Both the position numbers and the translations under genes were made by a program. DNA of 15,043 bases from Archangiaceae bacterium. Lineage in GTDB: Bacteria; Myxococcota; Myxococcia; Myxococcales; Myxococcaceae. The notes under the pieces were generated by a model. That model was given only the letters and a program-made list of their open reading frames with translations. It was not told where the DNA came from and did not search any database. Numbering within the stretch: the stretch's first letter is position 1; each line of letters begins with the position of its first letter. Positions 4,042 through 9,111 of the stretch are shown here, piece by piece. Location of the stretch: the NCBI GenBank assembly GCA_043750125.1, contig JAYVCD010000272.1, positions 1 through 15,043 of the forward strand. The letters are read 5' to 3'.

Positions 4042-5436
4042 ATGTCACTTGAAAAAGCGTTGGCCCGGTTTGGGGCTGAGAAAAAGAACTACCTCGAAGA
4101 CTTGAAGACGTTGGTCCGGATTCCCTCGGTGTCGTTCGCCGGGTTCGACCCTCAGCAGGTGCGCGCGTCGGCCGAGGCGACCGCCAAGCTGCTCGAGCGG
4201 CGCGGGTTCAAAAACGTGCGGCTGCTCGAGATTGAGGGCGCCCACCCTTACGTCTACGGAGAAATTCTCGACGCTCCGGGCAAGCCGACCGTGCTGCTCT
4301 ACGCGCACCACGACGTCCAGCCGGCGGGCGATGCCAAAGCGTGGAAGTCGCCCCCGTTCGAGCCGACCGAGCGCGACGGCCGGTTGTTCGCGCGCGGGGC
4401 AGCCGACGACAAAGCCGGAGTGGTGGTGCATTCGTCCGCCGTCGACGCCTGGCTCAAGGGCGCCGGATCTCTGCCGCTGAACGTGAAGGTGATCATCGAG
4501 GGCGAAGAAGAAATCGGTTCCGAGCACCTGACCGCGTTCCTGCAGAAGCACAAAGCGCTGGTCCAGGCCGACTGCATCGTGCTGACGGACACCGGAAACT
4601 TCGAAACCTCGCTGCCCAGCATCACCACCGCGCTGCGGGGCCTGGTCACGGTCGATGTCGAGGTGAAGGCGCTCAGGCAGTCGCTGCACTCGGGAATGTG
4701 GGGCGGGCCCGTTCCGGATCCAGTGATGGGGTTGTGCCGGATGATCGCCACTCTGACGCGGGAAGACGGGTCGATTGCGATTCCCGGAATCTTAGAAAAG
4801 GTGAAGCCGCTGACCGCCGAAGAGCGGCAGTGGATCAACGAGCTGCCGGGAGATCGCGCCCACTTTCGCAAGCAAGCGGGGATGCTCGCGTCGGTCGAGC
4901 TGCTGGGCGGAGATCGCCACCCGTGGGAAACGAACTGGCGCCAGCCGTCGCTGACCGTCAATGCGATTCAAGCCAGCACCCGGGCGGACGCGCGCAACAT
5001 CATCTGCGAATCGGCGTGGGCCCGAATCGGCATTCGACTGGTGCCCAACCTCGATCCGCTCGACGTGCAGAAGAAGCTGGTCGATGCACTGAAGAAGTCG
5101 GTGCCCTGGGGGCTCGAGGCCGACATCCAGTCCGACCAGACCGTGAACTGGTGGTACACCGACCCCAGCGGGCCCGCGTTTCAGGCGGCGTTTCGCGCGC
5201 TCGAAAAAGGCTACGGAAAGAAGGCGGTCGCGATTGGTTGCGGCGGCTCGATTGGCTTCGTCGAGCCGTTCAGCAAGGAGCTCGGGGGAGTCCCCGCGCT
5301 GTTGATCGGCGTCGAGGACCCGTACACCAACGCGCACTCGGAAAACGAAAGCCTCCACCTGGGCGACTTCGACAAGGCGATCGCCAGCGCGATCTACCTC
5401 TACGACGAGCTGGCGAAGGCGCTCACCGCGCGGTAG
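4042..5436 (+). CDS. M20/M25/M40 metallopeptidase (CNDP/Dug1-like dipeptidase subgroup)
   Basis: Metal and catalytic motifs YAHHDVQP, ARGAADDKAG, EGEEEIGS, AHSENE; also LHSGMWGG and GGSIG of the dipeptidase subgroup. Confidence 0.93.
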   Translation: MSLEKALARFGAEKKNYLEDLKTLVRIPSVSFAGFDPQQVRASAEATAKLLERRGFKNVRLLEIEGAHPYVYGEILDAPGKPTVLLYAHHDVQPAGDAKAWKSPPFEPTERDGRLFARGAADDKAGVVVHSSAVDAWLKGAGSLPLNVKVIIEGEEEIGSEHLTAFLQKHKALVQADCIVLTDTGNFETSLPSITTALRGLVTVDVEVKALRQSLHSGMWGGPVPDPVMGLCRMIATLTREDGSIAIPGILEKVKPLTAEERQWINELPGDRAHFRKQAGMLASVELLGGDRHPWETNWRQPSLTVNAIQASTRADARNIICESAWARIGIRLVPNLDPLDVQKKLVDALKKSVPWGLEADIQSDQTVNWWYTDPSGPAFQAAFRALEKGYGKKAVAIGCGGSIGFVEPFSKELGGVPALLIGVEDPYTNAHSENESLHLGDFDKAIASAIYLYDELAKALTAR

Positions 5437-5443
5437 CCGCAAA

Positions 5444-5486
5444 TGAAAATGTGCGGCCCACTCATCGCGGGCCGCACACGTTTTCA
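5444..5486. terminator. Probable bidirectional intrinsic terminator
   Basis: Perfect 10-bp stem TGTGCGGCCC (5450-5459) / GGGCCGCACA (5469-5478) with a 9-nt loop. It is flanked by TGAAAA and TTTTCA and lies between convergent stops at 5436 and 5508. Confidence 0.8.
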
Positions 5487-5507
5487 ACCACCCGGAAAAG
5501 AGCAGGG

Positions 5508-6506
5508 TTACGGGGCGCAGACGCCCATCAAGCAGCGCTCGCCGGCAACGCAGTCACAGTTGCTGACGCACTGGGGACCTGAGCCCGGCAGGCAGTAGCC
5601 GATGCGGCAGGTCTCGGTGGACGTGCACTGCGAGGTGCTTCCGCAGCGGTTGCGGCAGGTCGAGTCGACGCAGTCCTGACCGGCTCCGCAGTCGCCACCG
5701 CTGCTGCAGGTGCCCGGAGCGCGGGGACGGCACAGGCCGGCCTGGCAGCTCTCGCCGGTGTTGCAGTTGGTGTCGAGGCTGCAGCCATAGAAGCACTTGG
5801 CATTCACGCACCAGGCGCCGACGCCGCACGCCGCATTGTTGGTGCAGCTTCCGGGAGGATTCGGGTGTCCGTTCCCGCCGCCCGTTCCACTGGTGCCGCC
5901 GCCGGTGCCGCTGGTGCCGCCACCGGTGCCGCTGGTGCCGCCGCCGGTGCCACTGGTACCGCCGCCGGTGCCGCTGGTGCCGCCGCCGGTGCCACTGGCG
6001 CCGCCGCCCGCGCCACTCATCCCTCCGCCACCGCCGGCTCCGCTGCCACCATCAGGGTTGGAGGTCGGGCCACAGAAGCCCGCCTGGCAGGTCGAAGTGC
6101 CGCCGCAGTCGACATCGCGGTAGCACGGACGGCTGCAATAGCCATTGAGACAGACGTCGAGCCCGCATTGATTGTTGGTGGTGCACGCCTTGGAGCCGGG
6201 AGGAAGCGGGCGGCAGGTGTTGGCGACACAGTATTCGCCGCCGTGGCAGTCGGTGTTTTTTGCGCAAGCTCCGGAGCAGACGCCGTTGCTGCACGCCTCG
6301 TTGGCCTTGCAGTCGCTGGCCGCGGTGCACTTGGGCAGGGTCGAACATTTCCCAGCCCGGCAAGAACAAGAGGAATGGCAGTCCGACGTCTCGGAACAAG
6401 AGGAGCCGGGACAGCCGAACGTGCAGTCCTGCCAGGGTTCTGCCTTGTCCACGATGCAGCCAGCGAAGAGCAGCGGTGTCAGCAACAGCGCGAAGCGCGA
6501 GTTCAT
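5508..6506 (-). CDS. Cysteine-rich repeat lipoprotein with central Gly/Ser/Thr linker, 332 aa
   Basis: ATG 6506 gives MNSRFALLLTPLLFAGC, a signal peptide with lipobox FAGC (Cys17). It has ten C-x5-C-x4/5-C-x4-C repeats and 45 Cys in total. The track's longer start (6704) crosses the intergenic promoter region. Confidence 0.88.
   Translation of the reverse strand: MNSRFALLLTPLLFAGCIVDKAEPWQDCTFGCPGSSCSETSDCHSSCSCRAGKCSTLPKCTAASDCKANEACSNGVCSGACAKNTDCHGGEYCVANTCRPLPPGSKACTTNNQCGLDVCLNGYCSRPCYRDVDCGGTSTCQAGFCGPTSNPDGGSGAGGGGGMSGAGGGASGTGGGTSGTGGGTSGTGGGTSGTGGGTSGTGGGTSGTGGGNGHPNPPGSCTNNAACGVGAWCVNAKCFYGCSLDTNCNTGESCQAGLCRPRAPGTCSSGGDCGAGQDCVDSTCRNRCGSTSQCTSTETCRIGYCLPGSGPQCVSNCDCVAGERCLMGVCAP
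5874..6020. repeat. In-frame 21-bp tandem repeat, about 7 copies, encoding (TSGTGGG)n
   Basis: Units close to GCCGCCGCCGGTGCCRCTGGT start at 5874, 5895, 5916, 5937, 5958, 5979 and 6000. Differences among the core copies are synonymous. Confidence 0.95.
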
Positions 6507-6553
6507 TGGTTTGGGCGAGCGCGGGGAAGGAATTTTGTCCGCGTTCAATTCAA

Positions 6554-6583
6554 TTCGTTGCCTCCGGTGGGTCGGTTGATCAT
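6554..6583 (-). promoter_or_regulatory. Putative ECF-sigma promoter for the Cys-rich lipoprotein gene
   Basis: The minus strand reads ATGATCA-accgacccaccgga-GGCAACGAA, i.e. TGATCA-N17-AACGAA, preceded by an A7 tract. A mirror copy lies at 6607-6636. Confidence 0.65.
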
Positions 6584-6606
6584 CGGAATTTTTTTGCGTC
6601 GAACGA

Positions 6607-6636
6607 ATGATCAGTTCGCGGGGGGGTGGCAACCAA
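6607..6636 (+). promoter_or_regulatory. Putative autoregulatory ECF-sigma promoter for the sigma/anti-sigma operon
   Basis: The plus strand reads ATGATCA-gttcgcgggggggt-GGCAACCAA, i.e. TGATCA-N17-AACCAA, ending 52 bp before the sigma ATG. It matches the copy at 6554-6583 at 15 of 16 box positions. Confidence 0.65.
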
Positions 6637-6688
6637 CGGAAGTGTGCTCGCTGAATCCCTCGAAGTCTGGTTGGACCGGAGCTCCACG

Positions 6689-7300
6689 ATGAGCGCCGGC
6701 GCAATTTCCCTACAGCGCCTGGTCCCCACGCCAGCGCCGCCGTCGGCCCTCGAGGCCCGGCTGTTGCGGTTGGTCGAACGGATTCGCAACGACGACATCC
6801 TGGCGTTCGAAGAGCTCTATCGACTGACGCGGGACGATGTGGCCCGCACGCTGGGTCACTTGATGGGTCGTCGATCGGATTTGGAAGACCTGATTCAGGA
6901 AACCTACCTGCGGCTGTTGAAGGCGGTCCCCAACTTCCGGGGAGAGTCCCAGTTCCGGACCTTCCTCTACCGGGTCTGCGCCAACGTGGCGCTGATGCAC
7001 CAGCGGTGGTGGCGGCGGCGGCGCGAAGATCTGGTGGAAGAGCTGCCGGAACAACACAGCAGCGACGACCCCGAGTCGTCCGCGCAGGCCGCCGAATCGG
7101 CCCGACTGGTTCAGCAGGCGTTGCAGAACCTGTCAGAGAAGAAGCGGGTGGTCTTCGTCTACCACGAGCTGTGCGGCATGGGTCCGGAGGAAATCGCCCT
7201 CGCCGTCGACTGCTCGTACAACACGGTGCGCTCGCGGCTCTTTCACGCGCGCCTCGAATTCACCCAGGCCCTGCGCGCGCTGGTGGAGGGCAGGCGATGA
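6689..7300 (+). CDS. ECF-subfamily RNA polymerase sigma-70 factor, 203 aa
   Basis: ATG 6689 follows GGAG (6678-6681). Region 2: AFEELY...EDLIQETYLRL...FRGESQFRTFLYRVCAN. Region 4: LSEKKRVVFV...EEIA...NTVRSRLFHAR. Confidence 0.95.
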   Translation: MSAGAISLQRLVPTPAPPSALEARLLRLVERIRNDDILAFEELYRLTRDDVARTLGHLMGRRSDLEDLIQETYLRLLKAVPNFRGESQFRTFLYRVCANVALMHQRWWRRRREDLVEELPEQHSSDDPESSAQAAESARLVQQALQNLSEKKRVVFVYHELCGMGPEEIALAVDCSYNTVRSRLFHARLEFTQALRALVEGRR

Positions 7301-9090
7301 AAAGGCACGATCAGACTCTGCTGTGGCAGTACGCCGCGCGCGAGCTCGACACCGAAGAGTCGGCGCTGGTCGAGCATCACCTTTCGGAATGCGTCGAGTG
7401 CAAAGAGCGGCTGCTCGACGTTCGCCAGGCGCGGCTGGTGCTGCAGGATGCTCAGGCGCCCCGCCCCAACGTGAAGTGGGAAAAAGTCGATCAGGGAATT
7501 TCGCAGTTGGTGGAGGCGCAGCTGCTGCGTCAGTCGAAAGCGGCGCAGCGAGGTTGGCGATGGCCGTTGGCGTTCGCGGCGATCGCAGCCGCAGTGATTG
7601 CGCTGGGGTCGACGGGCAAGCTCGACCTGACCCGTGCTCCCGAAGAGGCGCCCAGTGAAGCCATCGCCTCGAGCGGAACCGAGGTGGAGCAGGCGTTGGG
7701 CTTGAGTCGGGTGGGCGCGGAGCTGGCGCTGGCGCGGCAGGGTGAACGACTGGGTGCGGGAGAAGTGCTGCGGACGGCGGTGGGAGGGCGAGGGGTATTG
7801 GCGCTGCCGGACGGAAGCCGAATGCGATTGGCGGGTGGGTCCCAGCTGGCGTTGACGCGGACCGAGGCGGACGACGTGGCGTTGACGCTCGAGCGGGGAA
7901 GGGTAGGGGTGCAGGCCTCGCACCGGGTTCGCCGGGGTTTTGTGGTGCACACCAACGGAATGTCGGTGCGGGTGGTGGGCACGTTGTTCCTGGTTTCGCA
8001 GGTGGCGGGGGTGGTGGAAGTGGCGGTGGCCGAGGGGACGGTGGTGGTCGAGCCGCCTGAAGGCGAGGCGCTGCGGCTGGTGGGAGGAGAGCGGGTGCGC
8101 TTCGAGCGAGGCAACTGGAAACCGCTTCGTGGGGCGGTGAGTGTTGGGCAGGTGGCAGAGCTCAATGAGCTGAGTGCTCCGCCGATGACTGAAGCGGCGG
8201 GAGTTGCGCGGGCGCCGGCCGGAGGAACGTTGCCGGCGGGAGCGATGGCGCGCCGCGACGATGCCAGGGTTCATTCGATGCAGCAGACTTCGCAGGTGGT
8301 GGGTGTGGCGTTGACTCCGGACCCGCCGGCTTCGCAAGAAGAAGGGCTGTTGCCGAGGAAGCAGGCGGTGCCGAGGGGCGCACCGACGCTGTGGCCATTG
8401 GGTCATCCACGAGCCCAGAGCCCGGCGAATCCGCAGAGCGCTGGAGCGACGAGCGAAGACGAGGCGCCGCAGTTCGAAGAGAAGGCTTCGGTGTGGCCGT
8501 CGATGGGCGGGGGGCCGGTGACCTACGAGCCCCGAATGCGCAAGCGTTCGACGGCGAAAGTGGCGAGCAATCCCGCGGCGGCAGTGCCGCAACCTTTGGC
8601 GGCGGCGATTGCGGGGGACATCACGCCAGCGGCGGACGTGGCTCCGCAGTACCAGCTGGACGTAGAGCCGCCGGCGTCGGAAGCGCAGAAGGGCGCGGAC
8701 CCGGCAGAGTTTGGAGAGTTCCCGAAGGCGCAGGCGCCGACTGCGGCATCGCCGGTTGCGCCGAAGGCTCTGACGAAGGCGCGAGCGGGAGCAACGCCGA
8801 AGCAGCTGAAGAATGCGGATCCGTTGCCTGAGGATCTCGAGACGTTGTTTCTTCAGCGCGCTGAGCGAGGTCTGGATCGGGGCATCTGCGAGAGGTACCT
8901 GATGGGGTTGCAGGAAATCGCAGGGGACTCGAGCCGAAACGAGCGTGCCGAGAAGGCGCGGATACTCAGAGCGCGCTGCTACGACGCGAAGGTTCGGCCG
9001 GACCTTTCCGAGATTGAGTACCGCCGGTACCTCGAGGTGTGGCCGAAGGGCCGGCACGCGGATGAGGCGCGCAAAGCGATCATCGAGTGA
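7297..9090 (+). CDS. Membrane anti-sigma factor: zf-HC2 (ZAS), TM helix, FecR-like domain, Pro/Ala-rich linker, C-terminal TPR-like domain, 597 aa
   Basis: ATGA overlap with the sigma stop. HLSECVEC is an HxxxCxxC motif; TM WPLAFAAIAAAVIALG. FecR-like LPDGSRMRL...LERGRV...VRVVGTLFLV...VAVAEGTVVV. C-terminal ILRARCY...EYRRYLEVWPKGRHADEAR. Confidence 0.88.
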   Translation: MKRHDQTLLWQYAARELDTEESALVEHHLSECVECKERLLDVRQARLVLQDAQAPRPNVKWEKVDQGISQLVEAQLLRQSKAAQRGWRWPLAFAAIAAAVIALGSTGKLDLTRAPEEAPSEAIASSGTEVEQALGLSRVGAELALARQGERLGAGEVLRTAVGGRGVLALPDGSRMRLAGGSQLALTRTEADDVALTLERGRVGVQASHRVRRGFVVHTNGMSVRVVGTLFLVSQVAGVVEVAVAEGTVVVEPPEGEALRLVGGERVRFERGNWKPLRGAVSVGQVAELNELSAPPMTEAAGVARAPAGGTLPAGAMARRDDARVHSMQQTSQVVGVALTPDPPASQEEGLLPRKQAVPRGAPTLWPLGHPRAQSPANPQSAGATSEDEAPQFEEKASVWPSMGGGPVTYEPRMRKRSTAKVASNPAAAVPQPLAAAIAGDITPAADVAPQYQLDVEPPASEAQKGADPAEFGEFPKAQAPTAASPVAPKALTKARAGATPKQLKNADPLPEDLETLFLQRAERGLDRGICERYLMGLQEIAGDSSRNERAEKARILRARCYDAKVRPDLSEIEYRRYLEVWPKGRHADEARKAIIE

Positions 9091-9111
9091 GTCGAGGTTT
9101 CCTGAGTGGGG

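Follow-up and report, generated by a model that had tools for sequence, protein, structure and literature searches.

Here we analyzed a putative divergent promoter region beside the gene for a sigma factor of the extracytoplasmic function (ECF) type in an Archangiaceae bacterium. The window, meaning the whole stretch of DNA analyzed, is the 15,043-nucleotide (nt) contig JAYVCD010000272.1 (C272) of assembly GCA_043750125.1, a 6.17 Mb genome in 460 contigs with 65% GC and 89% completeness (G000 below). In this window, the sigma gene and an anti-sigma factor gene, whose start overlaps the sigma stop codon, point away from a lipoprotein gene. The 182-bp intergenic spacer, bounded by the lipoprotein ATG at 6506 (-) and the sigma ATG at 6689 (+), holds two outward-facing copies of the bipartite motif ATGATCA-N14-GGCAAC(G/C)AA (Table 1). 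An earlier note, made from the sequence alone, proposed that the adjacent sigma reads both copies as promoters, one for its own operon and one for the lipoprotein gene. For the sigma, generic sigma70-ECF was the sole NCBIfam model above its cut-off, and among solved structures it most closely matches AlgU (6in7, 2.5e-19) and E. coli sigma-E (1or7). Pfam matches and an alignment of 20 orthologs show that the anti-sigma factor begins with a zinc-finger anti-sigma domain and also has a FecR domain, a long linker that is Pro-rich and variable, and, at its C-terminus, ~90 amino acids (aa) that form a conserved domain; the NCBIfam antisigma model matched it at 2.2e-10, below the cut-off of that model.

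Table 1 Features of the divergent sigma/lipoprotein locus in the window.
Feature	Position	Strand	Details
Divergent lipoprotein gene	5508..6506	-	332 aa; lipobox LLFAGC, GGTSGT-type repeat linker, DUF7107
Predicted lipoprotein gene transcription start	6543..6548	-	Best guess G6546 after T6547; estimated from ATG distances
Putative promoter copy facing lipoprotein gene	6554..6583	-	TGATCA 6582-6577, spacer, GGCAAC 6562-6557, GAA 6556-6554
Gap between ATGATCA boxes	6584..6606	.	23 nt; T7 run 6589-6595; upstream of both putative -35 boxes
Putative promoter copy facing sigma operon	6607..6636	+	TGATCA 6608-6613 (putative -35), 14-nt spacer, GGCAAC 6628-6633, CAA 6634-6636
Predicted sigma operon transcription start	6642..6647	+	Best guess G6644 after T6643; estimated from ATG distances
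ECF sigma gene	6689..7300	+	203 aa; Pfam Sigma70_r2 8.3e-14, Sigma70_r4_2 3.3e-13
Anti-sigma factor gene	7294..9090	+	598 aa; Pfam zf-HC2 1.3e-06, FecR 3e-15

The minus-strand copy reads ATGATCA accgacccaccgga GGCAACGAA and the plus-strand copy ATGATCA gttcgcgggggggt GGCAACCAA, with a -10 region of CAACcAA in the latter. Inspection of the sequence confirmed the earlier description in every detail, with the two outward-facing copies 23 bp apart, boxes that agree at 15 of 16 positions, and spacers that are equal in length (14 nt each) but dissimilar (3/14 bases shared). TGATCA-N14-GGCAAC has two matches in the window, a number reached in 0/200 dinucleotide shuffles (mean 0.00). Scored with a 30-nt position weight matrix (PWM), the plus-strand copy is the second-best match in G000 at 33.0 bits, and the minus-strand copy reaches 23.1 bits. 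The RNA fold of the motif region has a z-score of -0.47, with 59/200 shuffles folding equally well or better, and an Rfam search of the region gave no match at E<=1. A scan of 6350-6800 for sigma-70-like promoters returned 0 sites. Sigma-54 promoters follow the consensus TGGCAC-N5-TTGC(A/T) (GG-N10-GC); here the bases after GGCAAC read CAACGGAAG or GAATTGAAT, with TTGC absent at the required distance. An UP-element role for the T7 tract was considered but is not claimed here, since the A/T content upstream of the -35 box is 0.33-0.41 across 27 instances, with no clear peak, and enrichment is thus no general feature. The direct repeat GGAATTTT occurs at 6529-6536, in the predicted lipoprotein leader, and again at 6585-6592, beside the lipoprotein-side -35 box, and may be due to chance.

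The divergent lipoprotein/sigma/anti-sigma gene order is conserved among relatives, most of the close ones being metagenome bins; the cultured Corallococcus and Citreicoccus orthologs are 60-64% identical. Conservation of the motif in orthologous spacers was one of the checks the earlier note had suggested, and we found N14 to be fixed while the spacer sequence is free, the pattern of a bipartite ECF promoter. Orthologous and paralogous sigma loci were drawn from 40 relatives, and in 19 of the 21 loci examined a plus-strand N14 copy with no more than two box mismatches lies upstream of the sigma gene, including loci of 44-50% identical paralogs; L020 and L023 are the two that do not. The closer orthologs among these loci have the minus-strand copy as well. 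In complete family loci, [T/G/C]GATC[A/G]-N14-GGCA[A/T]C-nAA is present on the sigma side in 19/19 and on the lipoprotein side in 18/19. We then applied a strict criterion, the GATC core with at most one mismatch elsewhere, to loci from a wider set of named records; the chance rate of this criterion in G000 is 0.0126 per 520-nt strand. Among 58 myxobacterial loci, 38 have the plus copy, 36 the minus copy, and 31 both, compared to 0/20 (plus) and 1/20 (minus) for gammaproteobacterial RpoE-like loci. The position facing its own sigma/anti-sigma operon is thus conserved.

Within the genus, the boxes are intact and the spacing is fixed, and the spacer sequences have diverged, as in accgacccaccgga, acctttgaacggga, cccgccggaatcga, and cctgacggaatcga on the lipoprotein side. 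Aligned instances give the consensus t-TGATCR-nyty-N9-C-GGCAAC-nAA, with GGCATC frequent in the lipoprotein-side copy. Columns that played no part in choosing the instances are also kept, namely the C before GGCAAC (0.80) and two of the bases after it (A28 at +2, 0.71; A29 at +3, 0.92), as is a pyrimidine-rich stretch 3' of the -35 box. The back-to-back -35 hexamers are 25 nt apart in the window and 12-151 nt apart across 31 loci (median 37), and some genes, paralogous sigma genes among them, have a lone copy facing them. Because the distance varies this widely and single copies exist, the two copies are separate units rather than one palindrome.

The motif is also enriched across the genome. 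The exact pattern has 7 matches in G000 compared to 0 for its backward control, and the PWM has 12 matches at 20 bits or more compared to 0 for the reversed matrix. With the central columns blanked and a threshold of at least 22 bits, N14 gives 6 matches and N12, N13, N15, and N16 give 1, 2, 0, and 1, respectively. In five sigma-bearing family genomes, GATCR-N14-GGCAACNAA matches 29 times (0 for the control), and in five family genomes with no sigma match it occurs once, at a site that corresponds to L061, itself judged coding by its frame. Extending the count to 121 sampled family genomes gave 199 matches and 1 backward control match. These genomes were classed by their best sigma match, and because the classes follow phylogeny the counts describe a phyletic pattern rather than independent trials. 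The 31 genomes with a close ortholog (E<=1e-78) hold 162 matches (mean 5.2), with at least two in 28 of them, and the 50 genomes lacking a sigma match at E<=1e-35 hold 11 (mean 0.22), with none at all in 40. Between these extremes, 35 genomes whose ortholog is 58-63% identical hold 9 matches and five genomes with nothing better than a paralog-level match hold 17. Among these related genomes, motif abundance therefore tracks the presence of the sigma (162 in 31 genomes vs 11 in 50).

The low count at 58-63% identity is explained by different -10 boxes in those genomes. In 12 aligned spacers from Corallococcus, Citreicoccus, and relatives, a twin TGATCA...TGATCT surrounds an A/T-rich center and the N14 spacing is kept, but the -10 box is GGAGACcCA in the sigma-side copy and TGCGTCgAA in the lipoprotein-side copy. 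The -35 element is thus stable, and the -10 element has drifted along with the sigma. The three sigma classes with the GATC -35 core in common do not vary in the sigma-4 segment NTVRSRL, the putative -35 recognition helix. One sigma-2 column follows the -10 change, reading ALMH in the GGCAAC classes and ALSH in the Corallococcus class; it could be tied to -10 specificity, but shared descent confounds the link, which is no more than a lead. The Corallococcus-class sites (L124-L137) lie ~150-250 nt upstream of the sigma gene, and L124-L137 have a block, AGTGTGCTCG, in common with positions 6641-6650 of the window, downstream of the sigma-side promoter.

The distance from the motif to the next start codon points to where transcription may begin. 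Using frame-free distances for 33 exact matches (29 from the five relatives and 4 from G000), we found an ATG that opens an open reading frame (ORF) of at least 50 codons 5-9 nt past the final AA in 13/33, and 10 nt past it in one more. Any ATG falls in the 5-9 nt interval with a background frequency of 4.3%, which gives a binomial probability of 4e-10, a value inflated by relatedness. In G000, such ATG-opened ORFs follow 10/68 N14 matches, compared to 0/27 for N12, 0/73 for N13, 4/29 for N15, and 2/91 for N16, and 6 of the N14 matches and 0 for every control spacing lack an in-frame upstream ATG or GTG. If the A of the ATG is set as +1 at a gap of 6, TGATCA spans -35 to -30, GGCAAC -15 to -10, and AACnAA -12 to -7, with the AA at -8/-7, so that 17 nt separate the -35 hexamer from the -10 hexamer AACnAA, as in promoters of the sigma-70 family. 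ECF promoters usually have the layout GGAAC-N16/17-CGTC, to which the motif corresponds, TGATC standing for GGAAC and CAAC for CGTC. Because the start-codon gap places TGATCA near -35 and CAACnAA near -10, we infer that targets with an ATG 5-9 nt past the motif are transcribed as leaderless mRNAs, and the recurrence of this distance suggests leaderless translation in the lineage.

The same distances were used to predict the starts listed in Table 1. These overlap the intervals of the earlier note, 6640-6645 (+) and 6545-6550 (-), and a TG stands at the same offset from both copies. A search for RNA sequencing runs over 5400-9100 of the window listed none. The sigma ATG at 6689 is preceded 7 nt upstream by a GGAG Shine-Dalgarno sequence (6678-6681), and the predicted leader is ~45 nt. 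In three other genera (L161, L167, L176) the sigma ATG is instead 6-8 nt past the motif, and elsewhere leadered forms have 23-99 nt; lipoprotein leaders at family loci usually have 46-54 nt. In the window, a GTG in frame with the sigma gene at 6644, 7 nt past the motif, could add 15 residues to the sigma as a leaderless start. However, ATG 6689 is more likely to be the start because of the GGAG sequence and the alignment with ortholog N-termini.

The earlier note had suggested that the motif could be used to find a regulon, and the genome scan does yield a plausible and partly conserved set of secreted proteins and lipoproteins. Taken jointly with the twin ECF promoters, our best reading is that G000 probably has about ten further promoters of this type, mostly for unannotated secreted proteins and lipoproteins. 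The candidates, named by contig, are C162 (33.1 bits; a small secreted protein with its ATG at +6), C24 (24.3 bits; a lipoprotein, also with its ATG at +6), C376 (20.5 bits; a di-iron/ferritin-like protein), C127 (19.1 bits; a lipoprotein), C394 (18.9 bits; an unannotated protein), C14 (18.9 bits; a membrane fatty-acid hydroxylase family protein), C360 (18.3 bits; a DUF2807 lipoprotein), C430 (18.0 bits; a secreted His-rich protein), C238 (15.9 bits; a lipoprotein), and C42 (15.7 bits; a paralogous ECF sigma). Most of the candidate proteins have no Pfam family. Several targets recur together with the motif in other genomes: C162 at L039 (G004) and L045 (G012), C24 at L058 (G016), C127 at L054, C360 at L057, C376 at L049, and C42 at L062, L064, and L065. 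Some matches, such as C146 and the pair L061/L067, are coding and probably not promoters.

The third-best PWM match in G000, TGGATCG-N14-GGCAACCAA at C214:670-699 (+) with 28.3 bits, falls between two minus-strand genes that are 46 nt apart and is directed, in antisense, into an esterase-like gene (705-1718) from its 3' end. A same-genus genome (L044, G004) conserves this site together with ~20 nt downstream of it, and it may be the promoter of an antisense or non-coding RNA. Several of the GGATCG sites (L043, L044, L059, and C214) have GAATTCAT or AATTCAT beginning ~19-23 nt upstream of their -35 box. In the C214 case this element provides the start codon for a divergent gene (MNW...), so that the -35 box is ~11-15 nt from the divergent ATG.

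Together, these results are most consistent with a divergent pair of ECF promoters read by the adjacent sigma, which we consider likely. This likely reading includes autoregulation and co-expression of the lipoprotein through the pair, and about ten more envelope-gene promoters in G000. In each copy, TGATC(A/G) would be the -35 element and the -10 element would lie within GGCAAC-nAA, where CAAC, the core, spaced 16 nt from the -35 hexamer and followed by AA, takes the place of the usual ECF CGTC. RNA polymerase carrying the adjacent ECF sigma would then initiate ~6-9 nt past the AA, at ~6644 (+) and ~6546 (-). The membrane anti-sigma factor, with its zinc-finger domain inside and its FecR domain outside, would release the sigma; the freed sigma would amplify its own operon by positive feedback and would also induce the conserved Cys-rich lipoprotein, along with a small regulon elsewhere in the genome whose products are for the most part secreted or lipid-anchored. 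Many of the target promoters would abut the start codon and give leaderless mRNAs, and a close paralogous sigma may share in reading the promoters.

Several observations weigh against this interpretation. The related genomes are not independent, and both the binomial and the class comparisons therefore overstate significance. The PWM was built from instances selected by their boxes, which inflates the information content of the boxes. About half of the exact matches are not close to a start codon, and a few are coding or antisense. In Corallococcus and the other genomes whose ortholog is 58-63% identical, the exact pattern is lacking (9 matches in 35 genomes) and the -10 boxes differ; therefore, the motif as written is valid only for a sub-clade. 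The commonest ECF consensus has AAC (GGAAC) in the -35 element and CGT in the -10 element, and TGATCR and GGCAAC-nAA deviate from both, although a canonical-like TGCGTC is found in the Corallococcus lipoprotein-side copy. Many ECF groups deviate from the consensus, however, such as ECF11 with GTGATC, according to the accessible part of a 2021 re-classification (PMC7826278). Finally, the C42 paralog, which is 46% identical to the window sigma, has its own promoter, in which an identical -10 box is combined with GGATCG at -35, and the five genomes with a paralog-level match only still hold 17 matches; therefore, the adjacent sigma is perhaps not the sole reader of the motif, or not its reader at all.

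Reading or co-reading by the paralog is the main alternative. If the paralog were the reader, the twin promoters would form part of a cascade instead of an autoregulatory loop. This would fit the paralog promoter, GGATCG-N14-GGCAACCAA, which lies 8-10 nt before the paralog ATG in four genomes (G000, G004, G008, G016), and the matches in paralog-only genomes, and GGATCG-type -35 boxes in many regulon matches of relatives favor it as well. However, the paralog promoters are consistently GGATCG and the sigma/lipoprotein pair is mostly TGATCR or CGATCR, with GGATCR in 1/19 sigma-side and 0/18 lipoprotein-side copies, a difference that suggests two specificities related to each other. The two -10 boxes beside the ortholog have changed together in the Corallococcus class, as expected if the adjacent sigma is the reader. 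In addition, at least one of the paralog-only genomes, G054 (78% complete), has an 88%-identical fragment of the ortholog at a contig end. We therefore find a cascade driven by the paralog unlikely, though the regulon may be shared or split between the two sigmas.

A second alternative is that the inverted pair serves as the operator of a dimeric or tetrameric transcription factor acting on both divergent genes. The copies are indeed inverted repeats of each other, and the TGATCA box on its own is a palindrome, but the unit as a whole is asymmetric (TGATCA vs GGCAAC), occurs singly, and always faces a gene. The variable distance between copies, the fixed position 5-10 nt before the start codons of many unrelated genes, and an abundance that follows the sigma clade also argue against an operator, making this explanation very unlikely. 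Housekeeping-sigma promoters beside a coincidental ECF neighbor are if anything a little less credible. TTGATCA is present in several instances and resembles TTGACA with one base added, but a TATAAT-like -10 box is absent, as were hits in the sigma-70 scan. To our knowledge a housekeeping sigma is expected in all bacteria, yet the motif has a handful of copies per genome and 11 matches in the 50 family genomes without the ECF sigma. Chance similarity, the remnant of a local duplication, or a hairpin, the last two of which the earlier note had already set aside, are favored by the inverted symmetry alone and can practically be dismissed given the shuffles, the fold, the Rfam result, and the retention of the motif across genera.

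Returning to the divergent ECF promoter pair, a more elaborate version is possible but doubtful as a whole. In it, the orthologous and paralogous sigmas would share the -10 box GGCAAC-nAA, differ in the -35 box (TGATCR vs GGATCG), and jointly drive a conserved envelope regulon of which about half is leaderless. The sigma gene would alternate between leaderless and leadered forms among genera, and the -10 box would have been rewired to GGAGAC/TGCGTC in the Corallococcus sister clade. The co-regulated Cys-rich lipoprotein might in addition be the sensing partner of the FecR-domain anti-sigma factor. If true, the sigma pair would be a natural example of the evolution of ECF promoter specificity.

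The lipoprotein (MNSRFALLLTPLLFAGC...) has 37 invariant Cys columns in an alignment of 19 orthologs and a variable Gly/Thr/Ser repeat linker (GGTSGTGGGTSGT...), and its domain matches are limited to DUF7107 and a weak Dickkopf_N. It may be an output or a signal partner of the anti-sigma factor. In a complex prediction of lipoprotein residues 18-332 with the anti-sigma FecR domain (125-300) and C-terminal domain (505-598), the score was 0.00, with no control runs, and counts neither for nor against a contact. Within the C-terminal domain of the anti-sigma factor (~90 residues), for which Pfam gave no match, C532 and C562 are invariant.

Autoregulated ECF sigma promoters are textbook, and the twin promoters look like a useful but ordinary case of a sigma that activates itself and a small set of envelope genes. 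Current understanding is not overturned; the leaderless layout of the targets and the -10 shift between sub-clades are the more interesting by-products. What the analysis provides is a testable promoter model, [T/G/C]GATCR-N14-GGCA[A/T]C-nAA, for an uncharacterized clade of ECF sigmas in a myxobacterial family represented mostly by metagenome bins, along with predicted starts and a first regulon of ~ten promoters for this genome. The sigma/promoter pair, with its unusual combination of -35 and -10 boxes, could also serve as an orthogonal part in synthetic biology. A literature search for the window sigma or its motif found no mention at the level of titles and abstracts, and a search on leaderless mRNAs in Myxococcus found none on topic by title or abstract.

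The E. coli sigma-E and P. aeruginosa AlgU type, to which the nearest solved relatives of the window sigma belong, has the promoter consensus GGAACTT-N16-TCNAA. As in that type, a bipartite promoter lies upstream of a sigma/anti-sigma operon and the targets encode envelope proteins. TGATC differs from GGAAC at the first and fourth positions only, and C-n-AA resembles TCNAA. In contrast, the window has the boxes TGATCR and GGCAAC-nAA, a second divergent copy for the lipoprotein gene, many seemingly leaderless targets, and an anti-sigma factor with a zinc-finger N-terminus and a FecR domain rather than RseA. The FecR domain is shared with the FecI/FecR systems (ECF239-243). FecI-type sigmas are usually not autoregulated, whereas the window sigma appears to be, and the N-terminus of the window anti-sigma factor is zf-HC2. 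The FecR equivalog of iron-starvation systems scored 30.3 bits against a cut-off of 385, and a TonB-dependent receptor domain was found in 0/12 of the large window ORFs scanned with Pfam.

For ECF11, the R. sphaeroides RpoE-ChrR type, the accessible part of the re-classification predicts GTGATC at -35 and CGTA at -10 (PMC7826278). The window shares the TGATC core and a zinc-binding N-terminal domain in the anti-sigma factor, but has CAAC-nAA in place of CGTA. Its anti-sigma factor has zf-HC2 and FecR domains and a predicted membrane-spanning segment, read from the sequence by eye, unlike the soluble ECF11 protein with its cupin domain. The ChrR-family model scored 16.8 bits on the window anti-sigma factor against a cut-off of 124.5, and R. 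sphaeroides RpoE or ChrR was named in 0/22 PDB matches. In the accessible part of the re-classification supplement, no group has a GATC...GGCAAC motif, and the sole GATC-containing motif is that of ECF11.

For the Myxococcales-specific groups ECF210, ECF216, and ECF267, promoter motifs are given as "not conserved" in the accessible part of that work (PMC7826278). ECF267, described there from Sorangium and Chondromyces, has an anti-sigma factor that is FecR-like, with a TPR, C-terminal repeat region added, and nearby kinases. Like these groups, the window has a myxobacterial ECF sigma with an anti-sigma factor at the +1 position, which as in ECF267 is FecR-like. Unlike ECF267, there are no kinases among the 12 window ORFs scanned, and the genus is another. 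As far as the group descriptions allow comparison, the window sigma also differs from all three in having a clear promoter motif, which fills a small gap where none is reported. The DdvS/DdvA paper (PMC6061681) contained nothing relevant to the window boxes. The approach here follows the same footprinting logic and relies on the same promoter properties as the footprinting of ECF regulons by Todor et al. 2020 (PMC7776599), whose accessible text describes leaderless targets beginning with A in Actinobacteria, with a prevalence that varies by phylum; here, the leaderless pattern appears in a myxobacterial family.

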